64,000 nt of DNA from Anaerolineae bacterium (GTDB lineage: Bacteria > Chloroflexota > Anaerolineae > B4-G1), in assembly GCA_046760785.1 (NCBI GenBank), contig JBHIET010000007.1, positions 736-64,735 on the forward strand, given 5' to 3'. The translations under genes and the position numbers were made by a program. Positions 42,049 through 59,731 of the stretch are shown one piece after another. Each line of letters begins with the position of its first letter. Positions within the stretch are counted from its first letter, which is position 1. The notes under the pieces were generated by a model. The model ran no database searches, was not told the DNA's origin, and saw nothing but the letters and a program-made list of their open reading frames with translations.

Positions 42049-43362
42049 TCACCTCGTCAGAGCCGGAATGATATACCTGAACAGACAATACACGTCCAGC
42101 GCCGCCAGTGCGGCGAAAAAGGCAGCTATCGCCCAGGCGCGCGTTCGCCGTGGCAGAACACCTGCCAGCGTGCTCAGCCCCAACGCAGCAGCCATCCCGA
42201 TGGGGATGAGGGCCGGGAACAGGTAGCGGCCCTGATGTTGTAAGAAGGACAAGTTGTACCCCAGGTATTCAAGCAGTATGAGTAGGAATAGGGCGAGGAG
42301 CAAGATCACGCTGGCGCGCTGGAACGAGGTCAGGCTGAGCCGCTTCCGATCGAACAGCCACCAGAAGAAGCCTACGATCAGCAGAACGGAGAGCAGAGCC
42401 AAGCCCTGGTAGATGCGAGCTGGCAGCACCACGCCCATCCAGCCGAACTGCCCCCAGAAGCTCTGAAACGTCCAGCGAACCATACGGCTCAGCAGTCCGC
42501 CCCAGCCGTGGAGCGCCAGGTATTCACTTGAGCGCATCTGTCCTTCGACGACCTCAGCGTGCCGCGACAACCCCATCGGGTCATGCCAGCCGTAGGTAAG
42601 GCCGTTGCGGATGAACCAGGGCGCAGATACGAGCAGCGCCGGGAAGAGCATCCAGACTACTTGTGTCACCGCCCATCCCACTGTCCGGCGCTCGTCCCGC
42701 CAGCGGATCAGCACAGCCGTCACTGCTACCACAGGGGCGACGTAGGCCGTGCTCTTGGCCAGCAATGCCGCCGCCAGCAGCAATCCGACCGGCCAGGGCT
42801 GCGCGTGGCCTCCACCGACGTAGAGCACCAATGCCCACAGCGTTCCTCCCACGACCAGCTCCGCCAGCGCGTCGTTGTTCACGCCCGCAGTCATCGCCAC
42901 GTGTTGAGGGATGAAAGCGATGAAAGCGGCGGTCATCAGCGCCAACTCGGTCCACCGGGGAAAGATGGCTCGCACCGTCCCGAAAGCGACCACCAGCAGT
43001 ACAGCCCCAAACAACACCGAGAGCAGCCGCAGCGGCAGCACCACGCCACCAAAGAGCAGGTAGACGGGAGTCGCCAGCAGGTAATAGAGCGGCGGCTGGT
43101 GATCCTCATACTCCACCGTGTCAACGGAGAGTTCGGGAGGGAAACGCGCCGACTTGAGGCATTCCAGGTAATCCTGGTCGTAGTCACCGAACTCGATGAC
43201 CGGAAAGCCCCGGCCCTCGGCCAGCGCGCGGACGTAGTTATAGTGGGCTGGCTCGTCGGGAACCTGCCAGGTGGGGGTGAGGCTCGCATAGAGGGTACCA
43301 ATCGCGACGTACACGATGACGATGGCGGCCAGAAGGACGCCAGGTGAAAGCCCTGTCTTCAT
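42049..43362 (-). CDS. GT-C fold membrane glycosyltransferase (ArnT/PMT-like)
   Basis: About 11 TM helices. The first loop contains PDEPAHYNYVRALAEG. Start at MKTGLSPGVLLAAIV. Confidence 0.7.
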   Translation of the reverse strand: MKTGLSPGVLLAAIVIVYVAIGTLYASLTPTWQVPDEPAHYNYVRALAEGRGFPVIEFGDYDQDYLECLKSARFPPELSVDTVEYEDHQPPLYYLLATPVYLLFGGVVLPLRLLSVLFGAVLLVVAFGTVRAIFPRWTELALMTAAFIAFIPQHVAMTAGVNNDALAELVVGGTLWALVLYVGGGHAQPWPVGLLLAAALLAKSTAYVAPVVAVTAVLIRWRDERRTVGWAVTQVVWMLFPALLVSAPWFIRNGLTYGWHDPMGLSRHAEVVEGQMRSSEYLALHGWGGLLSRMVRWTFQSFWGQFGWMGVVLPARIYQGLALLSVLLIVGFFWWLFDRKRLSLTSFQRASVILLLALFLLILLEYLGYNLSFLQHQGRYLFPALIPIGMAAALGLSTLAGVLPRRTRAWAIAAFFAALAALDVYCLFRYIIPALTR

Positions 43363-43569
43363 GGGGGCTATTGTACCCGCACAGAAGCCGATTGACAAGC
43401 ATCCTCAATCGCGTACCACGACATAGCCGACCTTACCCATCCTCGGACCTGGCAGGAATTTGCACAGAACACAGAGACAAGTATACTAACACGAGGAAAG
43501 CCCCGGCACTTTCACGGAGGGCCGAGGCTATGTCCAAGACGATGAGGGCGCCTTACAGAGGAGCATCCA

Positions 43570-44616
43570 ATGTCACGTGGAAAACGTGAGAGCCACTGGT
43601 TGGTCATACGCCGTTGCCTGGCCATCATCCGGCGGGCACAGCGCGGCCTGGCTAGCCGAGAGGAACTGATTCAGGCCGTACTGGCGCAGGAAGAGCCGGA
43701 GGCCTACGGAGAACTCCAGGGCAAGGCCCTGTATCGCCGCCTGGAGAACGACCTGCGGCGCATTCGGGACAACTTGATGGTGGACTTGTACTTCGACCGG
43801 CAGGCGGGCGGCTATGTGATCAAAGACACCTGGCTGCCCTTGCTGGACCTGCCGGACGAGGACCTGGCGACCATCGCCTGGCTGGAGGAGACGTTTGGCC
43901 TGGACTCGCCGCAGCACGACGAGGTACACGCGCTGCTGGGGCGGCTGAGGCTCTACCTGGGAACCGAGCGATTGGCCGCTCTGGAGCGCTGTCGTACGGC
44001 GCTGACAGTAGACCTGAGACAGCGGGACGAGGACGAGATTCCATCTGCGGTGTGGGATGGGCTGACGAAGGCAATGCTGGAGCGGCGGCAGGTCGAGTTG
44101 CTCTACCTCTCGCCCCAGTACGAGAATGGAAGACCCCGACGCCACGTGGTGGATCCCTACGACTACTACTTTGACACGACGCGCGGCCATTACTACCTGC
44201 GCGCCTACTGCCGCCGCGCCAAAGGCCCTGACGGCCTGGATGAGCCGCGCTGCTACATCACCTACCGCGTGGGGCGTATCTTGGAATTGACCGTGTTGCC
44301 TCAGAAGCTATCACCGCTGCCTCCACCCTCTCCCCGTTACGCTGTGGTGTACGAACTGGCTCCGCAGGTCGCCCGCCTGGGCGTCACCCACCACCTCAGG
44401 ATCGAGATCGAAGACATCGAGCGGCGAGACGATGGGAGTGCCGTCGTGCGCGGGACGACAGACAGCGTCTTCTGGGCCATCCAGGCCCTGATGCACTATC
44501 GGCATCACTGCCGCGTGCTGGGGGGGCCAGAGATGCTGCGGGAGATGCGAGCCACGGTACAAAAGATGGCTGAAATGTATGCACAGGAAAAGCGATCCCC
44601 ACGGATGTGGGGGTGA
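43570..44616 (+). CDS. WYL-domain transcriptional regulator, CRISPR-associated by position
   Basis: N-terminal HTH-like region and a WYL core (RRHVVDPYDYYFDTTRGHYYLRAYC...YRVGRI). It lies directly upstream of cas10d. From memory, a WYL regulator (sll7009) accompanies the Synechocystis type I-D locus. Confidence 0.8.
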   Translation: MSRGKRESHWLVIRRCLAIIRRAQRGLASREELIQAVLAQEEPEAYGELQGKALYRRLENDLRRIRDNLMVDLYFDRQAGGYVIKDTWLPLLDLPDEDLATIAWLEETFGLDSPQHDEVHALLGRLRLYLGTERLAALERCRTALTVDLRQRDEDEIPSAVWDGLTKAMLERRQVELLYLSPQYENGRPRRHVVDPYDYYFDTTRGHYYLRAYCRRAKGPDGLDEPRCYITYRVGRILELTVLPQKLSPLPPPSPRYAVVYELAPQVARLGVTHHLRIEIEDIERRDDGSAVVRGTTDSVFWAIQALMHYRHHCRVLGGPEMLREMRATVQKMAEMYAQEKRSPRMWG

Positions 44617-44672
44617 GGGTGTGGTAGAATGATATTGTGCAATGAGGGTGTGAGTCAAGAAGGGAGGAGTTG

Positions 44673-47600
44673 ATGCCCACAGTCTCTGAGATCGAACAAG
44701 TCCTGAATGAATACGTTGAAAAGTACATTCCGGTGATGTTGCGCCAGGGATACCACCTGGTGCTGGTCAAGGGCGGGCCGGACTATCCCCACCTGCCGGA
44801 ACAATCCCACTTTGCTCACATCATCAACGGCGCGTTTGGCCTGACGCAACTGGTCAAGTTCCTGATCGAGCACAACGTGCGCGTCCCCGGGCTGGACGAA
44901 GAAACTTTCCGCAAGGCGCTGGCGCTTTTCACCGTTCACGAAGTACACAAGGATGCCGAGGTGGAGCTGCTGGGCGATTCCCAGTTCAGCATCCCCCTGG
45001 AACGGCTGCGGGAAGAGTACCAGCGCCTGGGACTGGACCAATTCGCCCCGGTGGACGAGTACCTGATGCGGGCGGCCAATGTCCACAAGCGTAGCAGCAA
45101 GCACGGCGATTTGCTGCTCAGCGATGATCCGAACGCTGCACAGCTATGGCTATGGGTGCGCATCGCCGACACCTTCGCCTCGGTCAAGACGCCGGAAGAG
45201 GCGAAGGCTTCGCTGGAGGGCTATCTGGCCGATCTGGGGCCGGCCTTCGCCCCCAAGAGTCCGCCGGGCAAGTATACACTCTATTACCACGAGATCAAGG
45301 ACGTGCGCGGTGTGCTGACCAACACCGTCCACCAGGCTGTCGCTCAACAGTTGGCGGGCGACCTGGGCTTTTTCCCGCTGCTCTACTTCGCCACGGGCAC
45401 GCTCTATCTGGGACCGGCTCAATTGGACGGTGACGCCGATGACGCGATCCCCGCCGTCGCCGAATGGGTGCTCCAATCGCTGACCCAGGGCGGTGGTGGG
45501 GACGCCATCCGCGACGGGCTGCGTCGCCAAAAGTTCGACTTTGAGCGCTACGTCTACGCCTTTGCCACAGTGAAAGACCTGCTCCAGGTCGTCCACGATG
45601 AAACGCTGACCGCCAAACCCGACGCACGGGTAGCCCTCAAGGAGATAGACGGCCTGGTCAGCAAGCGCCAGGAACTGAGCGCCGAGTGGCGGGACACGGT
45701 CGAGGAACGGTTTGGCATCCAACTGCTCGACCCCAAGGAGCACAAAACCTTCAACGAACTCTGGTCCCAGGTACGGCGCTACCTGCTCTATGTGGACACG
45801 CTGTTGCGCGACCTGAACCCGGCCGAGAACCGACTGGAGTGGTTCCTGCGTGTGTTTGCCATCCCGCAGCCTTATGCCGACAACCTGCGTCGGGAAGCCG
45901 ACATCTGGGCGAAAGGCGGGATCGGCAAGTACGTGCTGGTGATCGCCTACCACTTCCTGCGCGGCCCCGACTTTGCCGACCGCCCGGCCGAGGCCACGCC
46001 GCCGGAGCAGGTGCTGGAGCGGTTGCACCGCCGCGTGCTGGAGGCCTTTCGCCAGGTGGATACCCAGGCCGGACGGCAGGCCGCCGTGGCCGAGCTGGGG
46101 TTGCGCCAGGACCTGGAGGCGTACCTGGCCGAGCATCTGTACCTTTCCTTTGCCCCGGCCAGTCAACTGGCCGCTGACAGCCTGGCGGGCTATGTGTCGC
46201 CGAAGCGCAAGGGGCACACGGGCCAGGTGTGTTCCATCTGCAACCGGCGCAGCGAGTACGTGCAGTCCTTGCGGGCGGGCATCCTGGACGACTTTGGGCG
46301 GGTTTTTTCCAATCGGGTGCTCCCCGCCCGCGAAGCGCCCCAGGGCAACCGCCTCTGGTGCCCGGTCTGCCAGTTGGAGTTCATCTTGCGCAAGGTGATG
46401 GGCATGGGCCTGCCCTCCACTGCCCATTACAAGAACTCGCGCCGCATTTATCTCTATGTGTTGCCCACCTTCTCTTTCACCCTGGAGCACCTGCGCCTCT
46501 TCGAGCCGCTGCTGAAACCGTTCCACCGCGTGACCGGCTTGCCGGTGCGCGATTACGGCAAGGGCGATCCCGGCTTGCCGCGCTACTGGTTGGAGCATCG
46601 CGCCTTCGACCCGGATTGGGTGGAGGACTTGCAAGAGGTGTTGGAGCGCGAGGCGGACAAGATCGCCGGCTGGGGCGGACGGGGCTTTGTGGGCGAACGG
46701 GTCTCGCTGGGACGCATCACCGGCCAGCCGCACTACTACCTCATCACTTGGGAGAAAGCGGCCCGCGACACCGAACCCGACGACGCCCGCATCGCCACCC
46801 GCACCGAGGCCTGGTGCAAGGCGCTCTTCGCCGCGGCAGTCATCAGCGGGCTGACCAGTTGCAAGGTCTACGTCACCGAACGGCCTTACCTGCCGGTGGC
46901 CGACCCCGCCGAGTTGAGGGCTACCATCACCCTCGATGGTCCGCCCCCGGCGCTGCGGGGGCTGCTGGGCGGGCGCACCGACGAGGTCACGCTTTACGGG
47001 CGGGAAAAGGGAGAGCGCAGCGGCCTGGAGCGGGTGTTGGACCTGAGCGCGGCGCTGTGGGCGGTGACCGCCGACGTGCACGCACCCCAACGCAACACCA
47101 AAGACAAGCACATCTCCGGCCGGCTGGGGACGCTGAATACCTCGCCGCTGGCCGGGGCCACGTTCTACAAGGAGTATGGCCGCCTGAACGAGGGGCAATC
47201 GCCCTTTCCCACATTGACGACGGCCTGTGAGGTACTGCTGGAGGTTCAAGGAGGTGAACTGATGGACCTGGTAGAAAAGATCGCACAAAAGAGCCTGGAG
47301 ATTGCCCTGCCGCGAGGTGCATCCGGCCGGGGCAAGGCGCGGCGCTACGAACTGGTCTTCCGCGAGGCGGTCTCCGCCATGCGCCAGGCGCAAAAGATGA
47401 TCCCGGAGATGCGAGAGGCGGCCATCGGCGGGAGGCGCCCGTCGGCGCAGAGCATCGCCGAACTGAAGCGGTTGACGGCGGGCACGCTGCTCAAGGGGTT
47501 GGAGCGCCGCCAGGAGAGCAGGCGGGGCGAGATCTTTGTCCGCGCCTGGGGCGACCAACTGGGCCGGCTGGTAGGCGAGTTCGTGGACCTGCTGGTGGAC

Positions 47601-47762
47601 GAGCTCTACCTGGGCCGCGCTGGGGGCAGCTTCGCCCGCTTCCTGCGGCTGGAGAACAGCCTGGCCGATGGGATCTATTACTACACCGACCGGCACCTGG
47701 GAGAAGAGTGGGCAGCGTACAAGGCCGCCAGAAAGGAGAGCGGGGAGCAGACCAATGAGTGA
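44673..47762 (+). CDS. cas10d: Type I-D large subunit Cas10d (Csc3) with an N-terminal HD-like domain
   Basis: 1029 aa. Has H...H(E)xxHK motifs (SHFAHIING, FTVHEVHKD, RIADTF) and the Zn ribbon CSICN...CPVCQ. It lies in an operon with csc2/csc1/cas3'. A GGGAGGAG RBS precedes the ATG at 44673. Confidence 0.8.
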   Translation: MPTVSEIEQVLNEYVEKYIPVMLRQGYHLVLVKGGPDYPHLPEQSHFAHIINGAFGLTQLVKFLIEHNVRVPGLDEETFRKALALFTVHEVHKDAEVELLGDSQFSIPLERLREEYQRLGLDQFAPVDEYLMRAANVHKRSSKHGDLLLSDDPNAAQLWLWVRIADTFASVKTPEEAKASLEGYLADLGPAFAPKSPPGKYTLYYHEIKDVRGVLTNTVHQAVAQQLAGDLGFFPLLYFATGTLYLGPAQLDGDADDAIPAVAEWVLQSLTQGGGGDAIRDGLRRQKFDFERYVYAFATVKDLLQVVHDETLTAKPDARVALKEIDGLVSKRQELSAEWRDTVEERFGIQLLDPKEHKTFNELWSQVRRYLLYVDTLLRDLNPAENRLEWFLRVFAIPQPYADNLRREADIWAKGGIGKYVLVIAYHFLRGPDFADRPAEATPPEQVLERLHRRVLEAFRQVDTQAGRQAAVAELGLRQDLEAYLAEHLYLSFAPASQLAADSLAGYVSPKRKGHTGQVCSICNRRSEYVQSLRAGILDDFGRVFSNRVLPAREAPQGNRLWCPVCQLEFILRKVMGMGLPSTAHYKNSRRIYLYVLPTFSFTLEHLRLFEPLLKPFHRVTGLPVRDYGKGDPGLPRYWLEHRAFDPDWVEDLQEVLEREADKIAGWGGRGFVGERVSLGRITGQPHYYLITWEKAARDTEPDDARIATRTEAWCKALFAAAVISGLTSCKVYVTERPYLPVADPAELRATITLDGPPPALRGLLGGRTDEVTLYGREKGERSGLERVLDLSAALWAVTADVHAPQRNTKDKHISGRLGTLNTSPLAGATFYKEYGRLNEGQSPFPTLTTACEVLLEVQGGELMDLVEKIAQKSLEIALPRGASGRGKARRYELVFREAVSAMRQAQKMIPEMREAAIGGRRPSAQSIAELKRLTAGTLLKGLERRQESRRGEIFVRAWGDQLGRLVGEFVDLLVDELYLGRAGGSFARFLRLENSLADGIYYYTDRHLGEEWAAYKAARKESGEQTNE
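47262..47762 (+). CDS. cas11d: Candidate internally translated small subunit Cas11d (nested in the cas10d frame)
   Basis: A near-perfect internal SD, AAGGAGGTGA (47249-47258), lies just upstream of the in-frame ATG at 47262. The 166-aa helical product starts MDLVEKIAQKSLEIAL... Confidence 0.45.
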   Translation: MDLVEKIAQKSLEIALPRGASGRGKARRYELVFREAVSAMRQAQKMIPEMREAAIGGRRPSAQSIAELKRLTAGTLLKGLERRQESRRGEIFVRAWGDQLGRLVGEFVDLLVDELYLGRAGGSFARFLRLENSLADGIYYYTDRHLGEEWAAYKAARKESGEQTNE

Positions 47763-49968
47763 ATTCGACTTTGGACCAATCTCACGCACGGTGGACGCCT
47801 CAACCGGTCGAGGCGATGCCATCAACTTTGCCTCACTGCCGGTCCACGAAGCGCTGACGGCCCTGCTGGCGAGCAACAAGGCGAGCAACAACCGGGATGA
47901 ATTTGTCGCCTGGCTGTGGCACGACCTGTTCAAGCCGTTGTTCTGGTGGCAATGGAATGCACGTAAGAGAAAATTTGATTGGATCCACTATCCCAACAAT
48001 AGACCAAATGATCCACTAAATGTTGAGGCACACTGGTCAAGTGTGACAGGAATTCCATCCGGTCTGGTGGAAACGCATCACCTTCACAGTGGCCGCAAGT
48101 TTAGGTTTGGGGAAACGGAAACGATTAACAACGAGTTCGACCAGGTTGCCATAGGAAAGGATGCCCGTTTTGTCCAACTCTCCTTCCTGGTCGAACCTGC
48201 TACCCATACTGCCCTGCTCCGTGCCGTGATCGCCGACGCCTTTATGGAAGTCGTGACGAAAGCGGTTGCTGCATCCATCGGAACGGAACTGGCAACCAAG
48301 TCGCCTACCTTCAAACGAGTCCGCTATGTTTTTGATTTCGATCAGGTCGCGCTGTCTAGCCCGCCCACCAGTTCAGAGATTGCGTCTCTGGCGAACCAAT
48401 ACACTTTGGACGTCACTTCTGATGAACTGATCATCAAGCACTTGGTGCCCCTTGCCAAACCGGACCTGGACGGACGTCACGTTGAGGTTGTGCTTGATTT
48501 GACCGCCGAGCCACCGACTGCAGAGCGGTTTGGCCAGGGCATAATCTCGTTGGTGGAGTTGTTGACCGTTTACCAAGACAGTCGTACCATCCTAATGGGT
48601 ATCCCTCAGTTTCTGACGGTGGATGTTGGGCAACTGACGCAACAGGTGCAGAGTGCAACAGAGCAGCGGCTACAGGGCCTGGATATTCGGACAATGGCAA
48701 ACACGGTTGAGCTCAAGCGGCAGGGCACAACACAAGGTCGTGTGAACTGGGATGCTCTGCCACTGAACAAGCAAGGTCAGGAGGTTGATTTGCTGGCACA
48801 CGTGTTTGCCGAGCAGGTGGAAATCCGCCTGATCGACCGAGGCCGATTGCTCCAAAAGGTCAAAGCCTCCAAAGGGAAATCCTTCGAGGTTCGTTTCCTC
48901 AGCGAGATCGTGTCGCATCCCATTGCATTGCTTGCTGGCAAACCTCGTCACTGCCGTTTCTGCAACTCGGCGTTCGAGAGCAATCTTCCCCCAGCCGACG
49001 CAAAAGTAGGAGGCTATTTCACCGATATTGAGCACGTTGGCTTTGGCGGCGACATTTGCCCGATGTGCCGTGTTTATATACTCAACTCCCACAAGTCCCA
49101 TACCGAGGCCGAAAGAGCGCAAGGCATTACAGGGGACCGGAAGGGATATCGTGGGGCTTTTGCCATCGCTTCTCCTTCCTCCCATTTCACCTATGATGGG
49201 GAACAGTGTCAGCTCATCGAGCAACCTCCACTGGATATCGGCGGCCGCTTCGCTGCACCCTTGCAACGGGCCACAGTCACCCTGCAGGAATATGCCCTGT
49301 TCAATATGCTTTCTCGTCGGCTCATCGCCCAGATTTGGACCCGGCTGGATGCTGCTAACGAGATGCAACCACTGCCCCTGCCATATGTGGGGGCCATTCT
49401 GTTAACCCAAAACAAAGCGGCTCAAATTCGGACACTGTTCGACTGTCTGGAGGTGCTCTTTGACAAAGTGGAACTTGTGGCATATCCGTTCAAGGTAACC
49501 GTACAGCCGGCTGCAGAACTGGCTTTCGAGATGGCGGTGAACGACCTGAAACAGCATCACACCAAACATACCTATCTGAAGACCAGCCCCATCATTGTCC
49601 CTGTACATCCAGACAGCAAGTTCACCCTCCTGGTGGACAACGGACTTCAGTTGGAGGTGAACTGCAAGTTCTTTGAGGATCGAAGGCGAGTGAACGAGCT
49701 TTTGGAGGACATCAAAGGTCAGAAGCGACAACACAATTGGCTTCTGGCCGTGCTTCAAGGCATAGACCCGGTGACAGCAACGGCGGAAACTTTCTATGAT
49801 TATGACGTGCCACTCCGGCAGGCCGAAGAGGCGTTTTGGAATACACGCTTGAATGCCGAGTCTCTTGCCCAGCAATGGCAACGATATGAAAAAGTGTGCG
49901 ACGAGGTTGGCCGCATTGTGGCCAGGTATCCGATGTTGATTGAGTTCTTTGCCAAACCAGGGAGGTAA
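47755..49968 (+). CDS. Second large-subunit-like protein: N-terminal HD motif + Zn ribbon (Cas10d-like / type IV-C Csf1-like)
   Basis: 737 aa. The ATG overlaps the cas10d stop (ATGAGTGA). Contains PVHEAL...AWLWHDLFKP (H...HD..K) and CRFCN-x41-CPMCR, which parallels CSICN-x44-CPVCQ of Cas10d. GC is lower than in the flanking genes. Confidence 0.6.
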   Translation: MSEFDFGPISRTVDASTGRGDAINFASLPVHEALTALLASNKASNNRDEFVAWLWHDLFKPLFWWQWNARKRKFDWIHYPNNRPNDPLNVEAHWSSVTGIPSGLVETHHLHSGRKFRFGETETINNEFDQVAIGKDARFVQLSFLVEPATHTALLRAVIADAFMEVVTKAVAASIGTELATKSPTFKRVRYVFDFDQVALSSPPTSSEIASLANQYTLDVTSDELIIKHLVPLAKPDLDGRHVEVVLDLTAEPPTAERFGQGIISLVELLTVYQDSRTILMGIPQFLTVDVGQLTQQVQSATEQRLQGLDIRTMANTVELKRQGTTQGRVNWDALPLNKQGQEVDLLAHVFAEQVEIRLIDRGRLLQKVKASKGKSFEVRFLSEIVSHPIALLAGKPRHCRFCNSAFESNLPPADAKVGGYFTDIEHVGFGGDICPMCRVYILNSHKSHTEAERAQGITGDRKGYRGAFAIASPSSHFTYDGEQCQLIEQPPLDIGGRFAAPLQRATVTLQEYALFNMLSRRLIAQIWTRLDAANEMQPLPLPYVGAILLTQNKAAQIRTLFDCLEVLFDKVELVAYPFKVTVQPAAELAFEMAVNDLKQHHTKHTYLKTSPIIVPVHPDSKFTLLVDNGLQLEVNCKFFEDRRRVNELLEDIKGQKRQHNWLLAVLQGIDPVTATAETFYDYDVPLRQAEEAFWNTRLNAESLAQQWQRYEKVCDEVGRIVARYPMLIEFFAKPGR

Positions 49969-49972
49969 TTCA

Positions 49973-50452
49973 ATGGCTGAAAATCAGAAATCATCGCGGG
50001 AACAGCGTCTGCGCCGGGCTTACGAAGCCATCGAGCAGATGCAGTTGGGCGAGCGCGAAGCGGAAGTCAAACTGGCGCTCAAGGCGTTGCTGATAGCGCG
50101 AGGGTGCATTCGTCTGCCTGAGACACCGCAAGCCCGCCGCAAGACACTTCAGCGGCTCTATCCGGCACTCGTCAAGTATTCGAGAGCCTCGGAAGCGGAA
50201 ACACTGGGTGCTCTGGTAAACGACGTGATCGGTGCTCTGTCGCCCGATTGGGATTTCTCCCCCCATCGCGCTCTCGGAGACCCTGTGGAAGACATCTACC
50301 AGGAGAGCGAAACGGCCAAACGGGCCAGAGAGCTCCTTAAGGAAGAGACCGTCCCTCTGGTCATCTTGATGAAAAAGATCTACCAAAGCTTCATCGAACC
50401 CGAAGAAGCGACTGAGGAAGAACAGGCAGAAGAGGAGGCCAGCCATGCATAA
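49973..50452 (+). CDS. Small all-helical protein, Cas11-like small subunit candidate
   Basis: 159 aa, preceded by a GGGAGG RBS. It is predicted helical by composition, with an acidic tail. Its position between the large subunit and a Cas7-like gene supports the call. Confidence 0.5.
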   Translation: MAENQKSSREQRLRRAYEAIEQMQLGEREAEVKLALKALLIARGCIRLPETPQARRKTLQRLYPALVKYSRASEAETLGALVNDVIGALSPDWDFSPHRALGDPVEDIYQESETAKRARELLKEETVPLVILMKKIYQSFIEPEEATEEEQAEEEASHA

Positions 50453-51437
50453 CCTGAAACTGTACGCCTTGTATCAGGCCAAGCAACCCATCATTCACAC
50501 TGAGGAGACCATCGGCAACATCTCCAAGATCAAAAAGATGCGCGTCATTCACGATGGCAAGCCTGTACCGGTGCCGACCCTCTCCGGCAACAGCTTCCGC
50601 GGCCAGTTCCGCGACATCCTGGCGGACCAGATGTTCGCCATTCTGACCAACGGTGGTGCCAGCCGTGTCAAACTCCCCCCTGACCATTACGGCGTTATCT
50701 ACAGCGGCGGCGTGATGAAGGAGGGCTCCAAGATGGGGGAGCAGATGAAGGCGATGGCTGACGCCATTCCTATGCTGCGACTGATGGGCTCGGCCTTTGG
50801 CAACGTGATGCTTCCATCAAAGTTGGCCGTGACCCACATCATTCCCTACGCGGTGGAAACGCAAGCCGTTGTCCAATCTACGGTGAATGCGCTGCCGGAC
50901 GAAGGGCGTGCCTTGTTGCCGGCGGAGCCACCCAGTCGCGGTGATTTGCTGTTCAACGATGGCCCACTGACCCGCAAGGATGACACCAAAGACCTGACCA
51001 AACAGCGCTACGCCGAGACAGAAGCAGACCTGGGCCAGGACGAAGAACGCACCCGCCGCCAGATGATCTACTACGTCGAGTGTATTCCTGCCGGAACGTT
51101 CCTGCTCCAGGAGATGTACAGCAAATATCCCCTGGACGATCTGGAACTGGGCTGCTTCTTCGATGGCCTGCTCACTTTTCTCCAGGAACCCAGCCTGGGT
51201 GGACGCAGCGCAGCAGGTTATGGGCAGGTACTGGCAAGGTACTGGGTACAATTGGAAGGCAAAGACCCGTTCGAGTTGACATCGGAGCAGGCGATCACAC
51301 TTCCCCAGCCGGTGCAGGATGCTATTGAGCAATACCGAAAGTGCGTGGAGAAACAGCAACAAGCTTTTCTCGGCGCGTTGAAAGCCAAAACCATTTCTGA
51401 GGAGGCGCAAGATGACGCCCCCGACTCCACGGAGTAG
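50445..51437 (+). CDS. RAMP protein, Cas7-like (Csf2/Csm3-like backbone subunit candidate)
   Basis: 330 aa. Contains TLSGNSFRGQFRD (compare the RAMP motif SGxSxRGxxR), LMGSAFGN, and the G-rich loop SLGGRSAAGYGQV. There is an 8-nt overlap with the previous gene. Confidence 0.65.
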   Translation: MHNLKLYALYQAKQPIIHTEETIGNISKIKKMRVIHDGKPVPVPTLSGNSFRGQFRDILADQMFAILTNGGASRVKLPPDHYGVIYSGGVMKEGSKMGEQMKAMADAIPMLRLMGSAFGNVMLPSKLAVTHIIPYAVETQAVVQSTVNALPDEGRALLPAEPPSRGDLLFNDGPLTRKDDTKDLTKQRYAETEADLGQDEERTRRQMIYYVECIPAGTFLLQEMYSKYPLDDLELGCFFDGLLTFLQEPSLGGRSAAGYGQVLARYWVQLEGKDPFELTSEQAITLPQPVQDAIEQYRKCVEKQQQAFLGALKAKTISEEAQDDAPDSTE

Positions 51438-52506
51438 GAGTAAAAGAGCTTTTCCTCTGAACGAGGAAGCCTGGCAACTGCTCAATGATACTGCCAGGGC
51501 AGTATCTTACGACCTGAGCGACGATACCGTCTACGAGCTGCGTCTGCGCCTGCAAACGCCCGGCATCTTTGCCCTGTACAAGGCCGACATCCCGGCTCCG
51601 GGACTGCCCATGCTGGATGGCTTCTTAAAGTTCGTGGCCTTTCAACAAGCGATGGACCAGGTAATGCGGAAAAGGCCAGACTTGACCAATGACTTGCTGT
51701 GGCAATGGAACCTGGCGCTTCGTGACACCCGGTACTGGATAGACTTTTGTATCCCCATTCGCCAAGAGACACTCAATAGCGGCATTGTGCTCTATGACTG
51801 TTCGGTCGGTTTGCCGGTGACTCCAGAAGATGACGTTCTCTATCCGACGGGCGCCTTTTTTGCCTGCGGGGGTAACCTGACCACCTACCCATCTGAAGAA
51901 AAAGGGCCGGCCGACCAGATTGCCTTGCGTCGCCGCTCTGTAGAACCAGTTTATCGACCCTTTGAATTGACCGGTAAATTGAACCCCCAGAGTGGTTCCA
52001 GAAAGGCGTTGGACAACCGTATCTATTACGCTCTCACCCAGGAATACACCTTCTACTTCCGAGGGGACAAAGATGGCGTCAGGCAATTATTGCACTTTGC
52101 TCTTCAGCAAGGGGTCGGCATCGGGAAAAAGACTTCGTTGGGGTATGGGCGCATTGCCCAGCTTGAGATTCAACCTGCCAACCAGTGCGTTACTCTCGGA
52201 CACGACATCGGTTTGCCTGGTGTGCCCCGGATAGCCTTGCTCAAGAACGTTCCTTATCAGGAACTCCAACGCCGAAGCATCCGGCAGAGTGGTGAGTTTG
52301 GGCTTGTTCAGGTAAAAGAAGGGAATCAGTGGAAGGACATCCTTACGCAGAATGAACGGGACCAAAACGAGAGGTTGTTCGGTGCCCGCGAGTTCAGCCT
52401 GGCCTCGCCCATCGAGACCTTTGATTGTTACTATCCGCCCTATTGGCGACGTGAAGGTCGCACGCAGGTGCTGAGATACGGCACTCTGCTCATACCACGC
52501 TCGTAA
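51412..52506 (+). CDS. RAMP protein, Cas5-like (Csf3-like candidate)
   Basis: 364 aa. Contains PMLDGFLKFVAF near the N-terminus and the G-rich loop GVGIGKKTSLGYGRI. A GAGGAGG RBS lies inside the upstream gene. Confidence 0.55.
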   Translation: MTPPTPRSRSKRAFPLNEEAWQLLNDTARAVSYDLSDDTVYELRLRLQTPGIFALYKADIPAPGLPMLDGFLKFVAFQQAMDQVMRKRPDLTNDLLWQWNLALRDTRYWIDFCIPIRQETLNSGIVLYDCSVGLPVTPEDDVLYPTGAFFACGGNLTTYPSEEKGPADQIALRRRSVEPVYRPFELTGKLNPQSGSRKALDNRIYYALTQEYTFYFRGDKDGVRQLLHFALQQGVGIGKKTSLGYGRIAQLEIQPANQCVTLGHDIGLPGVPRIALLKNVPYQELQRRSIRQSGEFGLVQVKEGNQWKDILTQNERDQNERLFGAREFSLASPIETFDCYYPPYWRREGRTQVLRYGTLLIPRS

Positions 52507-52520
52507 AGAAGGAGGTAAAA

Positions 52521-53525
52521 ATGACTCTGAAGACTTTACAACCCTACGCCAGCTATTTCGTTCCCGAGATCCCGCGCACACCCACCAATCGCTACGCCAG
52601 CATCATCCTGCTGCGGGAGACCAAGTCCTACGCCATCTTCACCACCGAGGGCGGCGAGCAGCAGGACGTGGAAGAGACCCCCGCCGGCCCGGCCCACACC
52701 GAGCCGACCACCCGCCTGGTGATGTTCAAGCGCAAGCAGGTGGCCCCGGAGCGACGCACCGGCAAGGCATTGCTGCGGCAATACGGTGTCTTTCCCTATG
52801 CCATCCAGGACGGACGGGTGGTCTATGGCGAAGAGGCGCTTCAGGCAAGGAAGCACTACGAGGACTGCTACCTCACCGAGGGTCTCTGCACCCACTGCCC
52901 CGACTGCCTGATCTACGGCTACGCCGCCATCGAGGCCGAAGGCGCCCGCAAAGCTCGCTTGATGACCGACACCTGCTTCACCGTCCGCCCCTACGAGATC
53001 ATCCAGAAGCAGGTCAAGTTCAACGTCATTGACGAGGCCCGGCACACCTCCGGCACCATCACCGAGTACGACTACACCACGCCGGGCGTCTTTCTCCCCG
53101 CCGTGGAGACGACGGTGGACCTGACTGCCGACGAGTTCGCCTACGTGCTGGGCAACGTCCTGCGCACCACCCGCTACGGCAAGGAGAGCACCCGCCAGGG
53201 CTTTGTGCGCAACCACATCCTGGCCATCGCCTTCTCCGACGTGGAACTCTTTGCCAACCTGGAGTTCACCCAGGCCCTCTACGACGCCCTGGTTGGCGCC
53301 GGCAAGGACCTGGCCGCCGAGGGCCTCTCGCTGGCCGACTTCCAACAGCACGCCGAGGCCGTCATTCAGCGGTTGACGGAGCAGTTGACCGGGCGGCTCA
53401 CCCTGGTCACCGGAGAGGAACTGGCGGGCATCCTGGAGGACGTGCGCGCCCTGAACCAGGACGAGGAGCGTCTGGCCGGGTTCCTACGAGACCTGAACAC
53501 GGCTTCGGCGTCGTTTGTGGTGTGA
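52521..53525 (+). CDS. csc2: Type I-D Cas7 (Csc2)
   Basis: 334 aa. Contains the LCTHCPDCLIYGYA Cys cluster and a Csc2-like body (FNVIDEARHTSGTITEYD, TRYGKESTRQGFVRN). AAGGAGG RBS. Confidence 0.8.
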   Translation: MTLKTLQPYASYFVPEIPRTPTNRYASIILLRETKSYAIFTTEGGEQQDVEETPAGPAHTEPTTRLVMFKRKQVAPERRTGKALLRQYGVFPYAIQDGRVVYGEEALQARKHYEDCYLTEGLCTHCPDCLIYGYAAIEAEGARKARLMTDTCFTVRPYEIIQKQVKFNVIDEARHTSGTITEYDYTTPGVFLPAVETTVDLTADEFAYVLGNVLRTTRYGKESTRQGFVRNHILAIAFSDVELFANLEFTQALYDALVGAGKDLAAEGLSLADFQQHAEAVIQRLTEQLTGRLTLVTGEELAGILEDVRALNQDEERLAGFLRDLNTASASFVV

Positions 53526-53659
53526 GGTCGCACGGCGGTTGAAACCGCATGCTGCGGGGTGCGAAACCGCCTGCGGCGGTTGGGGGGGCTGCGCCGGCAG
53601 GCTTCGCCGCCCCCAGCCCGCGAATTCATTCGCCGGGCAGAAAGAGAAGGAGCATCAGT

Positions 53660-54406
53660 ATGCACATCTACCGCATCGCCATCGAGCTGCTCGACTACAT
53701 CTTTTATGCCACCACCGAACGGGGCAAGGTCTACGAGACAGGGGCCTTCATCCACAACTATGCCCTGGCCTACGCCCTGGGCCTGGGGCGGGGAGAGACC
53801 TACACCTACGCCAACCTGAAACAGAAACCGCACTACCTGGAGGAATTGACGCCGCTGAACGGTCGCCTCTACCTCACCCCCGCTGCGCCCCGGCAAGTGG
53901 CCCACCGTCTGGTGCAGTGGAACACCATCCGCGAGGGGTATGCCTTTCCGGGCAAGGAACCGTCGGTGGGCTACCCCGACTGGGGCTTTGCCCGCATGCT
54001 GCGGCCTGGCTCTCGTTTTCTGTTCTACCTGCTTGCGCCCGACCCTGCCGCCTTGCCCGATGCACCTGCGCTCCGTGATCTGACAGCCGGACGGCCGATA
54101 CGGATACGGCTGGGCAAGTTCCCCGGCAAGGCCCGCTTGCAGGCGCAGCAGGCGGACAGGGTAGTGACGCGAGAGGGGCCTTTCCAGACGACGGCCATGC
54201 TCAACTGGCGCGACCTGGAGACCGACCCCCAGGTGTGCGACGTGGTCGCCGCCAGCCTGCCCACCCGCCTGCTCAGTCGCGCCCACTTTGCGGAAGGACC
54301 GTCCTACGAGGCTCATTTTGGCGATGACCGGGTTCGGCTACCAGTGCGGATGCGCTTCCTGGCCCGGCCGCCGGAAACACGTCGTCGCGCAAGGAGTCGC
54401 CGATGA
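53660..54406 (+). CDS. csc1: Type I-D Cas5 (Csc1)
   Basis: 248 aa, starting MHIYRIAIELLDYIFYATTERGKVYETGAFIHNYALAYALGL (Csc1 signature as I recall it). AGAAGGAG RBS. Confidence 0.75.
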   Translation: MHIYRIAIELLDYIFYATTERGKVYETGAFIHNYALAYALGLGRGETYTYANLKQKPHYLEELTPLNGRLYLTPAAPRQVAHRLVQWNTIREGYAFPGKEPSVGYPDWGFARMLRPGSRFLFYLLAPDPAALPDAPALRDLTAGRPIRIRLGKFPGKARLQAQQADRVVTREGPFQTTAMLNWRDLETDPQVCDVVAASLPTRLLSRAHFAEGPSYEAHFGDDRVRLPVRMRFLARPPETRRRARSRR

Positions 54407-56511
54407 ACCCGTTGACGGTGGAGGTCGGCCCGCTGGCCTACGCCCAAACCGACGAGCCGTGGATCGGCGACTACCGGCCCTACCTCTACCAGAGCCGCGT
54501 ATACCGGGCCGTGCAGGAAGCGTTGACGGGGCGAGAGACGCGTTGTCTCTTCCTGGTCACGCCCACCGGCAGCGGCAAGACGCTGGCCAGCTACGCCTAC
54601 ACCATCAACCACGGCACACCGGCCTTTGGCGTCTACCCCACCAACGAACTGATCCGCGACCAGGAGCGCTCGCTCAAGGACTGGCTGGACCCCGGCGACG
54701 ATTACCGGTTGCTGCGCATTGACAGCCGGCAGCTCGACCAGTGGCAGGATGGCCTCGACCTGCCGCAACACGCTCAGACCTTTGAGCGGCTGATGCACTG
54801 GCGGCCGACCATTCTCACCAACCCCGACATCCTGTTCTATACTTTCTTCGGGCTATACCGGGGACCGCGAGGGTTGAGCCAACGGCTTTTTGCACTGCTG
54901 GGGCAGTACCGGCTGTTCATCTTTGACGAATTCCACCTCTACAACGTCAAGCAGATGGCCGATGTGGCCTTTTTTGCCGGGACGCTGCACGCCATCAACC
55001 CAGGCTACGGGCGCGTCTTCCTCTTCGCCTCGGCCACGCCCGCATCACCGGCCCTGCCCTGGCTGCGCGACCGCTTGCACCTGCCGGTGGAGGTGGTTGA
55101 AGGAGAACCGTCGGACGCGCCGGAGGCCCGCACCATCGCCCATCCGCTGCAACTGACCCTGCTGCCCGCCGACCTGCGCCGCTGGAAAGGGGTGGAGACA
55201 CTGCTGGAGTACCTGCCGGCGCTGGAGCCATTCTTCCAAGAGCACCCCCAGGCCCGCCTGGTGACCATCCTCGACTCGGTGGCCGGGGCCATCGCCACCG
55301 CCCAGGCCCTGCGCCAGCGGTTCCCCGACAAAGCAGTGGGCGAAGTGCACGGCTTCAGTTCCGACCAGGAGCGAGAGGAGGCCTTGCGCCGACCCTTCAC
55401 CGTCGGCACCTCCACCATCGAGGTGGGCATTGACTTCAAGGACGAGGCGGAAAAGGACGTGCTGATCTTTGAGGCGCGCACGGCCAGCCAGTTCATCCAG
55501 CGCTTCGGACGGCTGGCACGACACGAGAAGGCCCTCGCCATCCCCAACCGCGTCATCGCCCTGGTGCCGGAGTACGTCTACCACTTTTTGGACGACAAAC
55601 TGAGCAACGGGCAGACCCTCTCACGCTACGATTTGTACTCGCTGGTCGAGGAGGGCTACACCAAACCGGAGGATTTCGAGCGCTACCTGCGCACCCACGC
55701 CGCCGCCGAGTTCCAGGCCGCCCGCAAGAACGCCCAGTGGCCCTTCCAGCCCGACGACCGGCCGCGCATCGAACAGGGACTGGCGGAGACCATCACCGCG
55801 CTGACGGGCAAGACCGATGGGCAAGCGTGGTCGCTGTACCGTCGTTACCAGGACGAGGAGCGCATCCTGGCCCCCTTGCTCACCTTTCGCGGCAGCGGGT
55901 TCGAAGCCGCCATCCTGGACGAGCGCGGAACAGACGCCGGCTTTCCGGCCAAACGCTACAACCTGATGTTCCTCCTGCGGCGCGGCATCTTCACCGAACT
56001 GGATGAGGAAGAATACCTGGCGCGGCTGGAAGCACTGGCCGACCACTGGCCGGAAGACGCCGCTCGCGAGCGGCGCTACGGCAAGCGCATCGGGCGCAGG
56101 CCGGAGGACCTGTTGGGCGTTTGCGGATTCTTCAGGCTGACCGGCCTGCTGGACAAGGGCCGCAAGGTCTGGTTTGAGATGAGCGAAGATGCTGTCTGGG
56201 GACGCAAGGCACGGGTGGCGGTGATTGACGGGTTGGATATAGTGACTGACCCAGACATGCCCTTGAGGCGGCTCAACCGCCACCTGCGCAAAAAACAAGT
56301 CGTCGCCTGGTTCGTGGACCGTCATCCGGCCTCGATCAAATTGGGCCGCGCCCTGCCACCTCTGTTCGAGATACACGAACTGCGCCTCCGGCGGCCCGGC
56401 GGTGGCCTCAGCCCCACCGTGTGGAGCATTGCCTTCAACCAGGACGCCTTTTTTGTGGATAGCCTGGGATGGCACAGAGAAAGCCGAGAAGATCGGGCGA
56501 TCATCCTGTGA
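54403..56511 (+). CDS. cas3: Cas3' helicase (no HD domain)
   Basis: Contains Walker A TPTGSGKT, DEFH box IFDEFH and motif VI QRFGRLAR. ATGA overlap with csc1. Confidence 0.9.
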   Translation: MNPLTVEVGPLAYAQTDEPWIGDYRPYLYQSRVYRAVQEALTGRETRCLFLVTPTGSGKTLASYAYTINHGTPAFGVYPTNELIRDQERSLKDWLDPGDDYRLLRIDSRQLDQWQDGLDLPQHAQTFERLMHWRPTILTNPDILFYTFFGLYRGPRGLSQRLFALLGQYRLFIFDEFHLYNVKQMADVAFFAGTLHAINPGYGRVFLFASATPASPALPWLRDRLHLPVEVVEGEPSDAPEARTIAHPLQLTLLPADLRRWKGVETLLEYLPALEPFFQEHPQARLVTILDSVAGAIATAQALRQRFPDKAVGEVHGFSSDQEREEALRRPFTVGTSTIEVGIDFKDEAEKDVLIFEARTASQFIQRFGRLARHEKALAIPNRVIALVPEYVYHFLDDKLSNGQTLSRYDLYSLVEEGYTKPEDFERYLRTHAAAEFQAARKNAQWPFQPDDRPRIEQGLAETITALTGKTDGQAWSLYRRYQDEERILAPLLTFRGSGFEAAILDERGTDAGFPAKRYNLMFLLRRGIFTELDEEEYLARLEALADHWPEDAARERRYGKRIGRRPEDLLGVCGFFRLTGLLDKGRKVWFEMSEDAVWGRKARVAVIDGLDIVTDPDMPLRRLNRHLRKKQVVAWFVDRHPASIKLGRALPPLFEIHELRLRRPGGGLSPTVWSIAFNQDAFFVDSLGWHRESREDRAIIL

Positions 56512-56536
56512 GGTAGGTGGGAGTGGAGAGGGAACG

Positions 56537-57409
56537 ATGAGCGCGAACGACGATATGCTCTACTCTATCGTCCTCATCCTCACCCCCACGCGCGCGTCGA
56601 GCGTCCGCGCCACGATGGGGTATCAGGCCCACGCTGCCTTCCTGAAGACGGTGCGCGAATCGGACCCCGCCCTGGCCGAGGTGCTGCACATGCCCGATAT
56701 GCCTTGCCGGCCGTTTACCGTGTCGCCCTTGCGAGGAACGCCGCGGCCTCAGAATGGGCGTATCCGCCTTTCGCCGGAAGAGACCTACTGGCTGCGCTTT
56801 ACCATCCTTTACCCGCCCATTTTCGAGCAGTTCATGCGCCGCTTTCTGCGGGGGGAAGGACGCCCCGTCGTCCGGCTGGGTCACGCCGTGCTGCTCATCA
56901 AAGAGATTCTCGCCACACCCGGAAGCCATCCCTGGACCGGATACACCTCGTGGGGAGAGATCGCGTCCGGCGCTCGGCCAGAGGCCGAGATCACGCTCGA
57001 CTTTGTCTCTCCCACTGCTTTTGGGTTTGGGCAAAAGGATTGGGGCAAGAAGGTGGTCGTGTTGCCAGAACCGGACGCGGTTTTCGGCAGCCTGGCCCGC
57101 TCGTGGAACAACCTGGCCCCGCCACCACTGCAAGTGGAGCGGGATGCGTTGAAGATCTATGTGGAGGAACACGTCGTCGTCAAGCGCATCAGTGATCTGC
57201 GCACACGGATGTTGCACTTCCGTAAGTCGCCCCAGGTGGGCTTCGTGGGACAGGTGACCTACGGCCTGATGGCGGAGAACGAGGCTGCCCGCTGTCAACT
57301 CAGCGCGCTGGCCGATTTTGCCTTCTACGCCGGCGTGGGGATGAAGACGACGATGGGGATGGGGCAAACCCGCCGGTGTGCTGACCAATATGGTCTACGA
57401 CGTCAGTGA
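56537..57409 (+). CDS. cas6: Cas6 crRNA endoribonuclease
   Basis: 290 aa with the C-terminal G-rich loop GVGMKTTMGMGQ. Start at MSANDDMLYSIVLIL after GGAGAGGGA. Confidence 0.8.
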   Translation: MSANDDMLYSIVLILTPTRASSVRATMGYQAHAAFLKTVRESDPALAEVLHMPDMPCRPFTVSPLRGTPRPQNGRIRLSPEETYWLRFTILYPPIFEQFMRRFLRGEGRPVVRLGHAVLLIKEILATPGSHPWTGYTSWGEIASGARPEAEITLDFVSPTAFGFGQKDWGKKVVVLPEPDAVFGSLARSWNNLAPPPLQVERDALKIYVEEHVVVKRISDLRTRMLHFRKSPQVGFVGQVTYGLMAENEAARCQLSALADFAFYAGVGMKTTMGMGQTRRCADQYGLRRQ

Positions 57410-57436
57410 CAGCGGCCCTTTTCAAGGGACTTTGGA

Positions 57437-57706
57437 TTGCGTGACCAGATCCGCGGAGCAGCCGGTTCGACTATGCACAACGTCGCCGAAGGATTCGATG
57501 CTGGCTCGGACGCCGAATTCATCCGCTTTTTGAAGTATGCCCGCCGTTCGGCCAGCGAGGTGCAATCGCAGCTCTACATCGCCCTCGACCGGCGCTACGT
57601 GACCCAGGATCAGTTCCAGTGCATCTACGACCAGGCCACCTCGGTCAAGAAGCCGATCAACGCCTTCATCGGTTACCTGAAAAAGTCCCGTCGGACATCC
57701 AAATGA
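57437..57706 (+). pseudogene. N-terminally truncated four-helix-bundle protein (23S rRNA intervening-sequence / Avd-like family)
   Basis: LRDQIRGAAGSTMHNVAEGF...EFIRFLKYARRSASEVQSQLYIA matches the central and C-terminal helices of the family. About 30 N-terminal residues are missing. Only a TTG start is available, and the ORF is in the same frame as cas6, nine codons past its TGA stop. Confidence 0.6.
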
Positions 57707-59432: not shown

Positions 59433-59731
59433 TGATGCAGCGCGGGAAGCCAGAACGTACACTCTATGTCATTGCCTACGATATTCCCAGCGACCGCCGC
59501 CGCACCAAAGTGCACAAGACGCTGTGCGGGTTCGGGGAGTGGACTCAGTACAGCCTCTTCGAGTGTCATCTGACGGACAAAGAGCGGGTGGCCCTACGCG
59601 GCAAACTGGATGAGCTTCTGAAGCCAGAAGAGGACAGCGTGCGTTTCTACCACGTCTGCGCGGCGTGCGTGGCAAAAGCAGAAACCATTGGATCGGAGAA
59701 ACCTGTGGAGAAGGACGTGTTCATCGTCTAG
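59432..59731 (+). CDS. cas2: Cas2
   Basis: Contains LYVIAYDIPSDRRRTKVHKTL...YSLFEC. The start is GTG 59432 or ATG 59435. Confidence 0.9.
   Translation: MMQRGKPERTLYVIAYDIPSDRRRTKVHKTLCGFGEWTQYSLFECHLTDKERVALRGKLDELLKPEEDSVRFYHVCAACVAKAETIGSEKPVEKDVFIV

Follow-up and report, generated by a model that had tools for sequence, protein, structure and literature searches.

The 64,000-nucleotide (nt) stretch of DNA analysed here, hereafter the window, originates from a metagenome-assembled genome of an Anaerolineae bacterium, and its + strand carries one long row of genes associated with CRISPR. This row comprises a WYL regulator, cas10d, a block of four genes, csc2, csc1, cas3', cas6, cas4, cas1 and cas2, followed by a CRISPR array. 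The four-gene block, which sits between two effector genes of a type I-D system and which the original prediction regarded as a second effector related to type IV-C, is the subject of the present report.

The four open reading frames (ORFs) of the original prediction are all present on the + strand at the positions it gave, and they are tightly packed. The first one (47755-49968) encodes a Cas10-like large subunit of 737 amino acids (aa) with HD motifs at its N-terminus, a Zn ribbon and no GGDD motif, which is identical to the NCBI 'hypothetical protein ACE5OS_02315'. It is followed on the same strand by the gene of a putative Cas11-like small subunit (49973-50452; 159 aa from the ATG; profile match to Cas11c), then by those of a type IV Cas7 of the Csf2 family (50445-51437; 330 aa) and a type IV Cas5 of the Csf3 family (51412-52506; 364 aa), both recognized by PADLOC and by profile matches to solved structures. 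The ATG of the large-subunit gene overlaps the stop codon of cas10d (ATGAGTGA), the junctions within the block are +4 nt, an 8-nt overlap (-8) and a 26-nt overlap (-26), and csc2 (52521) begins 14 nt past the end of the Cas5 gene, so that every junction of the block is either a start/stop overlap or a gap of at most 14 nt. A promoter or terminator proper to the block at its borders was considered and rejected, as there is no intergenic room for it and the scan for terminator-like sites showed no enrichment (11 found versus 14.5 expected from shuffled sequence). The sequence motifs quoted in the prediction all occur in the proteins, namely PVHEAL (H31) and WLWHDLFKP (H56, D57 and K60) in the large subunit, SGNSFRGQFRD and GGRSAAGYG in Cas7, and GIGKKTSLGYGRI in Cas5. 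In contrast, the predicted spacings of the Zn ribbons must be corrected, from x41 to C400xxC403-x31-C435xxC438 in the large subunit, and from x44 to C521xxC524-x39-C564xxC567 in Cas10d. Likewise, the notion that the first ribbon mirrors the second one was overstated: such ribbons are generic to large subunits, and hhalign aligned the two proteins over the ribbon only, with a probability of 10%. On the same ground, we rejected the possibility that the large subunit is a diverged paralogue of Cas10d.

Profiles built from related loci were searched against the sequences of the solved structures of the Protein Data Bank (PDB), in which the entries 11fs, 11hc and 11hd were used through their chain names and chain sequences. 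Each of the four products matched a different chain of this one solved complex: Cas10IVc of 11fs for the large subunit (E 1.4e-9), Cas11c of 11fs for the small subunit (E 7.4e-4), Cas7c for Cas7 (E 1.8e-23 over the full length, the next match being the IV-B Csf2 7jhy at 1.5e-12) and Cas5c for Cas5 (E 1.6e-3, the next match being the IV-A Csf3 7xfz at 8.6e-3). Furthermore, the 330-aa protein matched the typeIV_Cas7 model Csf2_0_IV of PADLOC (7.8e-47, full length) and TIGR03115 (Csf2) of NCBIfam (8e-14, under the curated cut-off), and the 364-aa protein matched the PADLOC typeIV_Cas5 model Csf3_0_IV (1.9e-18), the 'CAS-IV-C effector_G5' model (5e-5) and TIGR03116 (9.5e-8, under the curated cut-off). 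The 737-aa and 159-aa proteins had no match in Pfam, NCBIfam or PADLOC. The AlphaFold2 model of the large subunit (predicted local distance difference test, pLDDT, 80; predicted template modelling score, pTM, 0.88) was compared with known structures using Foldseek, which returned the Cmr2/Cas10 protein 3ur3 as the only significant PDB match (E 1e-4, probability 0.99), with other Cas10 proteins lower in the same list. In an alignment of 22 large subunits, 30% to 100% identical to the window protein, the residues H31, W53, W55, H56, D57, K60, H78, H108 and C400 are invariant, at least 90% of the sequences retain the other ribbon cysteines (C403, C435 and C438), and no GGD[DE] motif was found. 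As for the small subunit, its single-sequence AlphaFold2 model is all-alpha and of low confidence (pLDDT 58), and its gene always lies between those of the large subunit and Cas7 in the related loci, with a conserved position and size. The tentative Cas11 assignment is the weakest among the four.

In the definition given for subtype IV-C, cas11, csf2 and csf3 accompany a Cas10-like large subunit that bears an HD domain and a Zn finger and lacks the cyclase motif, and an array, Cas6 and adaptation genes are usually missing (PMC7038947, PMC8175902, PMC12669027). The published exemplar is the Thermoflexia (Chloroflexi) bacterium D6793_05715-05700 (Makarova et al. 2020). The block of the window comprises a Csf2-type Cas7, a Csf3-type Cas5, an HD/Zn-finger Cas10-like subunit devoid of GGDD and a putative Cas11, and these four genes only, without DinG, RecD, CysH-like, cas6 or adaptation genes and without an array. 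As this gene set corresponds to the published definition, the identification made in the original prediction is correct. The gene order large subunit-cas11-cas7-cas5, which it had described as the layout of IV-B/IV-C modules, is borne out by the matches to the 11fs chains, PADLOC and Foldseek, and the IV-C traits that it listed (an HD-bearing Cas10-like subunit, an exemplar of the Chloroflexi type and a usual lack of array and adaptation genes) agree with the literature. The profile and hidden Markov model searches placed all four proteins in Cas families, and the AlphaFold and Foldseek analysis of the large subunit, also suggested there, revealed a Cas10/Cmr2-like fold. Together, these data indicate that the four genes constitute a complete effector cassette of the rare subtype IV-C.

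The genes on either side of this cassette form a type I-D operon, cas10d-csc2-csc1-cas3'-cas6-cas4-cas1-cas2 plus an array, which is complete as had been predicted, profile matches being obtained for Cas10d, Csc2, Csc1, Cas3', Cas6 and Cas4, with Cas1 and Cas2 present too. All lie on the + strand. The host cas10d gene (44670-47762), which encodes the I-D large subunit, matched TIGR03174 (6e-46) and PADLOC Cas10_Id (1.2e-46), and a Cas10d profile matched the Synechocystis Cas10d 7sba with an E of 1.9e-73. Downstream of the cassette, csc2 (Cas7d; 52521-53525; TIGR03157 2e-61; Pfam Csc2 1.8e-78), csc1 (Cas5d; 53549-54406; TIGR03159 1.5e-31, residues 45-270 matched; the true start may lie further downstream) and the gene of the I-D helicase cas3' (54403-56511; TIGR03158 5.4e-55) complete the host effector genes. 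The sole crRNA (CRISPR RNA)-processing endonuclease gene of the locus is cas6 (56402-57409, start uncertain; TIGR01877 1.3e-18; Pfam CRISPR_Cas6 4e-19 and Cas6_N 2.3e-13), and the single adaptation module (57619-59731) consists of cas4 (57619-58335; TIGR00372 8.6e-38), cas1 (58335-59432) and cas2 (59432-59731), the latter two being ORFs homologous to the cas1 and cas2 genes of related I-D loci. The array (60136-63961) has 53 perfect 37-nt repeats (GCTCAACAAAACAGAATCCCGACTGAGGGATTGAAAC) separated by spacers of 34-38 nt, and it continues past the end of the window, so that it has at least 53 repeats. In the predicted fold of the repeat, a 6-bp hairpin precedes GAAAC, and the 3' end of the repeat is ATTGAAAC. 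An Rfam scan of positions 43000-61000, repeat and leader included, returned no family above threshold. Thus, the locus holds two types of interference modules with one adaptation module, one Cas6 and one array, and its gene content confirms the proposal of a second effector that lies inside a complete I-D operon and lacks its own Cas6, adaptation genes and array. Upstream of cas10d, the putative transcription regulator with WYL and WCX domains (43570-44616, +; Pfam WYL 6.6e-8, WCX 4.1e-8) has homologues at the same place in the related loci L005, L009, L062-L068 and L070-L071, i.e. it is kept across the I-D lineage of the window, and in three other loci (L031, L046, L052) such a regulator lies directly 5' of the IV-C large-subunit gene. 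The genes further upstream of the operon are ordinary, housekeeping-type ones (glycosyltransferase, PIG-L, AAA/VWA).

Relatives of the cassette are rare. A HMMER scan of 1.84 billion representative proteins gave only 51 matches to the large-subunit profile, among them about ten bacterial clusters of full length and some distant proteins of approximately 530-710 aa, and the Cas7 search found only the IV-B Csf2 proteins of Rhodococcus-type plasmids, 26-29% identical. The large subunit has no relatives in the IMG/VR and PLSDB collections of viruses and plasmids, and Cas10d has none in IMG/VR. With these negative searches and the housekeeping-type flanks, we rejected the possibility that the cassette is carried by a phage or a plasmid; it lies on the chromosome, in contrast to subtypes IV-A and IV-B.

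To survey the genomic contexts, 61 loci were fetched via the large subunit (24 from genomes and 37 from metagenomes), and the window proteins were mapped onto all of them. Wherever a contig spans them, in these 61 loci and in the additional locus L062, the four genes occur together and in the same order, both inside and outside I-D loci. Similarly to the window, six loci (L001, L002, L022, L025, L028 and L033) carry the cassette between cas10d and csc2, and in two others (L029 and L032) only the csc2 side is visible. Elsewhere it lies between csc1 and cas3' (L009, L023, L039, L050, L060), cas3' and cas6 (L005, L035), cas3' and cas10d (L037, L038, L042, L043) or cas6 and cas4 (L026, L040), i.e. 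five or more junctions of the I-D operon are occupied by the cassette. Three of the I-D arrangements are interleaved in the neighbour-joining tree built from the large subunits, within a clade whose members are mostly more than 65% identical to the window protein, which implies that the block has been relocated repeatedly. The cassette also lies within type I-B loci, in Poribacteria and others, either between cas8b-cas7b-cas5b-cas3 and cas4-cas1b-cas2-array (L011) or between cas3-cas1 and cas2-cas4-array (L053). In three further loci (L036, L044 and L017) the genes that come after it are (cas6), a cas1 truncated at its 5' end and cas2, with an array behind them, and type I effector genes were not detected in the fetched flanks. 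What remains of this cas1 is the last 110-135 codons or so, with similar breakpoints (L036:15464-15868, L044:5124-5522, L017:15101-15448). We had considered L036 as an autonomous IV-C system with its own adaptation module, a view that we downgraded because its cas1 is 5'-truncated and the locus thus looks like an I-D remnant.

These contexts bear on the possibility that the cassette does not encode an effector of its own but four accessory subunits for the I-D machinery. Such a role would account for the embedding and translational coupling of the genes within I-D effector genes, and for the frequent association of the cassette with I-D loci. However, it is hardly credible for the following reasons. 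First, the cassette encodes a full class 1 effector set, which matches a solved stand-alone IV-C complex. Second, it also occurs inside I-B loci, alone, or with only cas6/cas2/array. Third, three related I-D operons (L072-L074) are complete without it. Some side observations made in the survey concern the integrity of individual loci. In one Poribacteria genome, about 870 bp interrupt the IV-C cas7 gene (L008:13085-13962), cas7 and cas5 are each split across frames in L009 (L009:12727-14655) and the large-subunit gene is split in L004 (L004:2125); these breaks may be pseudogenes or assembly errors. In L011, 21-nt direct repeats spaced 47-48 nt apart lie between cas5b and cas3, beside a REP (repetitive extragenic palindromic)-associated tyrosine transposase (L011:5335-6683); this run is not a CRISPR array.

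Looking at the locus from the side of its host, we listed 120 Cas10d homologues of at least 61% identity, which are far more numerous than those of the IV-C large subunit, and sampled loci on long contigs picked irrespective of IV-C. Several of the sister operons harbor a different guest. A second I-D set made of cas3', a canonical Cas10d (PADLOC Cas10_Id 7e-218), csc2 and csc1 (L064:4728-11692) occupies in L064/L065 (Cas10d 93% identical to that of the window), L066 (80%) and L069 (76%) the same cas10d/csc2 junction as the IV-C cassette of the window, and a I-B set (Cas8b 4e-145, Cas7b, Cas5b and a helicase; L067:13114-19575) lies there in L067 (79%). The csc2/csc1 junction houses in L063 (84%) a III-C set (Cmr1, Cmr6, Cas10c 6e-167, Cmr4, Cmr5 and Cmr3; L063:14245-21791), and in L071 (75%) a set assigned to III-C by matching gene sizes and RAMP (repeat-associated mysterious protein) matches only (L071:14295-22477). 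In L070 (77%) a type III-like set comes after cas3', and L068 (78%) has no guest, a split csc2 and a truncated cas1. Furthermore, L064/L065, L066 and L069 have, in front of their outer csc2, a segment of 90-120 nt with homology to the 3'-terminal 35-55 codons or so of the IV-C cas5 (L064:11716-11823, L066:20060-20212 and L069:20123-20224, homologous to positions 52400-52506 of the window, the last ~107 nt of cas5). This relic was seen both in nucleotide alignments (blastn, 84-90% identity across the segment that contains it) and by tblastn in L064 (cas5 residues 329-364, 86% identity, E 6e-15), and it shows that a IV-C cassette formerly occupied that junction and has since been replaced. The relic is non-coding yet as conserved as the adjoining coding DNA, and it may double as the csc2 5' untranslated region or ribosome-binding region. 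The window thus represents one of the states of a family of loci whose I-D operons gain and lose nested cassettes for a second effector.

Other genes were noticed in or beside these cas operons. A toxin-antitoxin pair of the NTP_transf_2 plus HEPN type occurs twice, once inside a III-C guest, and a PIN plus MazE pair once (L066:21588-22507, L071:16577-17321 and L070:13487-14175 for the three pairs). In type III-like guests, an AAA_15/AAA_21 ATPase gene lies between the Cmr1-like and Cmr6-like RAMP genes (L070:15492-16781, L069:22535-23165), the best PADLOC matches of which are AriA, AbiLi, GajA and OLD-like proteins.

Unlike the large subunit of the cassette, the Cas10d of the window departs from the canonical HD motif II, which reads FTVHEVHK (residues ~87-94) with HE in place of HD. 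The glutamate is found in 106 of the 118 full-length close homologues of this Cas10d, whereas the aspartate is kept in the Synechocystis Cas10d 7sba (ITLHDYDK), in distant I-D loci and in the nested second Cas10d (YIVHDYTK). The remaining residues of the HD domain (H49, H89, K93, D166, H206 and H220) are conserved, and the HD variants are scattered over at least six places in the Cas10d tree. From this repeated alternation of D and E and the conservation of the other residues, it follows that glutamate may simply be tolerated at this position, and that the HE motif does not support a dead nuclease. It is worth noting that eight of the nine HE loci sampled via Cas10d carry a guest cassette, the ninth one looking decayed, whereas the three sampled close relatives with the canonical HD motif (L072-L074) are all plain, complete I-D operons without guest (one-sided Fisher test, ~0.018, with phylogeny ignored in a small sample of long-contig loci that are not phylogenetically independent). 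One could imagine that the HE lineage of I-D systems is a host platform depending on a swappable guest (IV-C, second I-D, I-B or III-C) for the supply of a canonical HD nuclease, with guest cassettes that may be exchanged at fixed junctions of the operon. We regard this idea as rather doubtful, and distant I-D lineages that have IV-C guests together with the HD form of Cas10d count against it.

The four cassette genes evolve under constraint. Their pairwise ratios of non-synonymous to synonymous substitutions (dN/dS) are 0.05-0.15, as against 0.16-0.30 for cas6 and the I-D effector genes compared in the same pairs, with cas1 and cas2 lower still, all of these values being rough because dS is near saturation. 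The cassette is therefore under strong purifying selection and hence conserved as functional, and, being conserved as a unit in the surveyed loci, it is not a chance pattern of ORFs. In the window, the GC content at third codon positions (GC3) is 0.60-0.72 in the cassette, as compared to 0.72-0.88 in the surrounding cas genes, and the same lower GC3 was observed in L001, L005, L042 and L050, the overall GC of which ranges from 48% to 63%. Along with the changing positions of the cassette, this offset is consistent with a more frequent horizontal exchange of the module than of its host genes. The small-subunit gene (49973-50452) shows 94%, 84% and 64% identity to its counterparts in L002, L033 and L001, respectively, as compared to 75%, 67% and 78% for the large subunit in the same three loci, a deviating pattern that suggests recombination inside the cassette.

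From these lines of evidence, we propose as the best overall explanation, which we consider probable, that the cassette is a selected and horizontally exchanged IV-C guest of the I-D operon, which would serve as a second crRNA-guided effector using host functions. The cassette would be co-transcribed with the I-D genes. With one cas6, one cas4-cas1-cas2 set and one array at the locus, it probably borrows its RNA processing and memory genes from the host operon. The IV-C complex would then assemble on crRNAs cut by the single Cas6 from the shared array, which would bear the 8-nt ATTGAAAC 5' tag and spacers of 34-38 nt. In nearly all the arrays beside IV-C cassettes in I-D, I-B and remnant loci, the repeat has the 3' end (A/C)TGAAA(C/G), an array of Poribacteria having ATAGAAAC there, and these repeat 3' ends look compatible with shared crRNAs. 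The three PDB entries of the 11fs type have 21 Cas7c, 18 Cas11c, 3 Cas10IVc and 3 Cas5c chains, which points to a backbone of about seven Cas7 with about six Cas11 per complex. By analogy, the window would produce a second surveillance complex with approximately one large subunit, six Cas11, seven Cas7 and one Cas5, beside the I-D Cascade. Upon target recognition, the Cas3-type HD site of the large subunit would cut the target, DNA being the likeliest substrate, and the same spacers would be enforced by two different effectors, as known for array-less III-B/III-C modules beside type I. DNA is taken as the target because the HD motifs are arranged as in Cas3 (PMC8175902) and IV-C is currently predicted to cleave DNA through its HD domain (PMC12669027).

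A type III-like mode of action has also to be weighed, in which IV-C would bind the target RNA and its HD domain would then cut the nearby single-stranded DNA, without an R-loop on double-stranded DNA. The best structural match of the large subunit is Cmr2/Cas10, Cas7 shows weak matches to Csm3, IV-C has been traced back to a type III ancestor in the literature, the solved complex of IV-B is similar to Csm (PMC7937560), and the equivalent guest in sister loci is a III-C module. We nevertheless consider this mode unlikely, as the order of the HD motifs is of the Cas3 form and not of the type III form (PMC8175902), the cyclase motif is absent, there is a single Cas7 paralogue in which no catalytic Asp-type RNase motif was identified, and the 2025 classification predicts DNA cleavage.

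Several points weigh against the proposed IV-C guest effector, in addition to the near-saturation of dS. First, the matches of the large subunit and the presumed Cas11 to the solved complex are modest, and the Cas11 model is of low confidence. Second, the GC3 offset could alternatively reflect weaker codon optimization instead of transfer. Third, transcription, complex formation, crRNA loading and nuclease activity are all inferred from genomic data, and our literature search gave no biochemical paper on IV-C. Fourth, the cassette stands alone in many relatives, e.g. the cultured Oscillochloris trichoides DG6, Poribacteria and others, where the 10 kb around it hold neither cas6 nor an array nor any other cas gene, so that the module can persist away from any visible crRNA source.

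Such solo copies, far from arrays and cas6, would also fit a non-defensive or parasitic guest that soaks up or competes for the host crRNAs, or acts as a regulator, without destroying a target, a role of this kind having been proposed for IV-B. Consistently, the GC3 of the cassette is below that of the host genes everywhere examined, the cassette moves and gets replaced, and reviews allow for a role other than defence in IV-C loci that lack an array. Such a guest is nonetheless quite improbable. The HD residues are invariant and the ribbon cysteines at least 90% conserved in large subunits as divergent as 30% identity, all four genes are under strong purifying selection, and no relatives occur in the viral or plasmid collections. 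Moreover, the cassette survives next to cas6, a truncated cas1, cas2 and an array without a type I effector in L036, L044 and L017, which fits a working effector.

As to novelty, the original prediction, which knew of no I-D locus with an embedded second effector, stands in part. The nesting between cas10d and csc2 was not found described, but the subtype IV-C has been catalogued before, and Pinilla-Redondo et al. have already reported its "common association with type I systems". The idea of shared adaptation modules and arrays has been published as well, with composite loci in which several interference modules go with a single adaptation module (Bernheim et al. 2019, PMC7145637). Our literature search, which did not extend to the classification paper of 2020, to the supplementary figure by Pinilla-Redondo et al. 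or to the 11fs paper, found no text on the cas10d/csc2 nesting, on multiple insertion points or on replacement. What is new in the present survey is that IV-C is one of several interchangeable guest effectors in this family of I-D operons. The survey shows that effector modules are exchanged as cassettes within the operon of another effector, which extends the known shuffling of adaptation versus effector modules. Composite loci of this kind are under-annotated, since neither the large nor the small subunit of the clade is captured by current profile libraries. IV-C being the least understood type IV subtype in the literature consulted, the locus also offers a test system, in which a defined Cas6, an array and an adaptation module share one operon with a bacterial IV-C cassette, so that the sourcing of crRNAs and the HD activity are directly testable.

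In comparison with known systems, the cassette adds to the known subtype IV-C a new bacterial member, which is poorly annotated. Similarly to the IV-C systems previously described (Makarova et al. 2020, Pinilla-Redondo et al. 2019, PDB 11fs/11hc/11hd), it has the same four genes in the same order, an HD/Zn-finger Cas10-like subunit without GGDD, Csf2/Csf3 RAMPs and a putative Cas11, neither DinG nor CysH, and no cas6, adaptation genes or array of its own, in a thermophile/Chloroflexi setting associated with type I. It differs in that the large subunits of this bacterial clade (717-799 aa) are distant from the 608-aa Cas10IVc of the solved complex (E 1.4e-9), are missed by Pfam, NCBIfam and PADLOC and are hypothetical proteins at NCBI, and in that the cassette of the window lies between two type I effector genes, not merely adjacent to a type I system. 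With IV-A and IV-B it shares a homologous Cas7 (the IV-B Csf2 7jhy) and Cas5 (the IV-A Csf3 7xfz), and IV-B also has Cas11. However, the large subunit Csf1 of these two subtypes is small and nuclease-less, whereas that of the cassette bears an HD domain, and IV-A uses DinG and IV-B a CysH-like protein, both being mostly plasmid-borne, whereas the cassette is chromosomal. Type I-D (Synechocystis Cascade 7sba) and IV-C both place the HD on a Cas10-like Zn-ribbon subunit and have backbones of multi-copy Cas7 plus Cas11, but their large subunits have no detectable specific homology beyond the ribbon, the RAMPs are Csc2/Csc1 in the former and Csf2/Csf3 in the latter, and I-D has a dedicated Cas3' helicase. 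The closest parallel in organization is provided by the array-less III-B/III-C modules beside type I, such as the I-F/III-B systems of Marinomonas (PMC7145637), which likewise have one adaptation module, one Cas6 and one array for two interference modules; in the window, the second effector is of type IV-C, it is nested within the genes of the first one, and it would share these functions.

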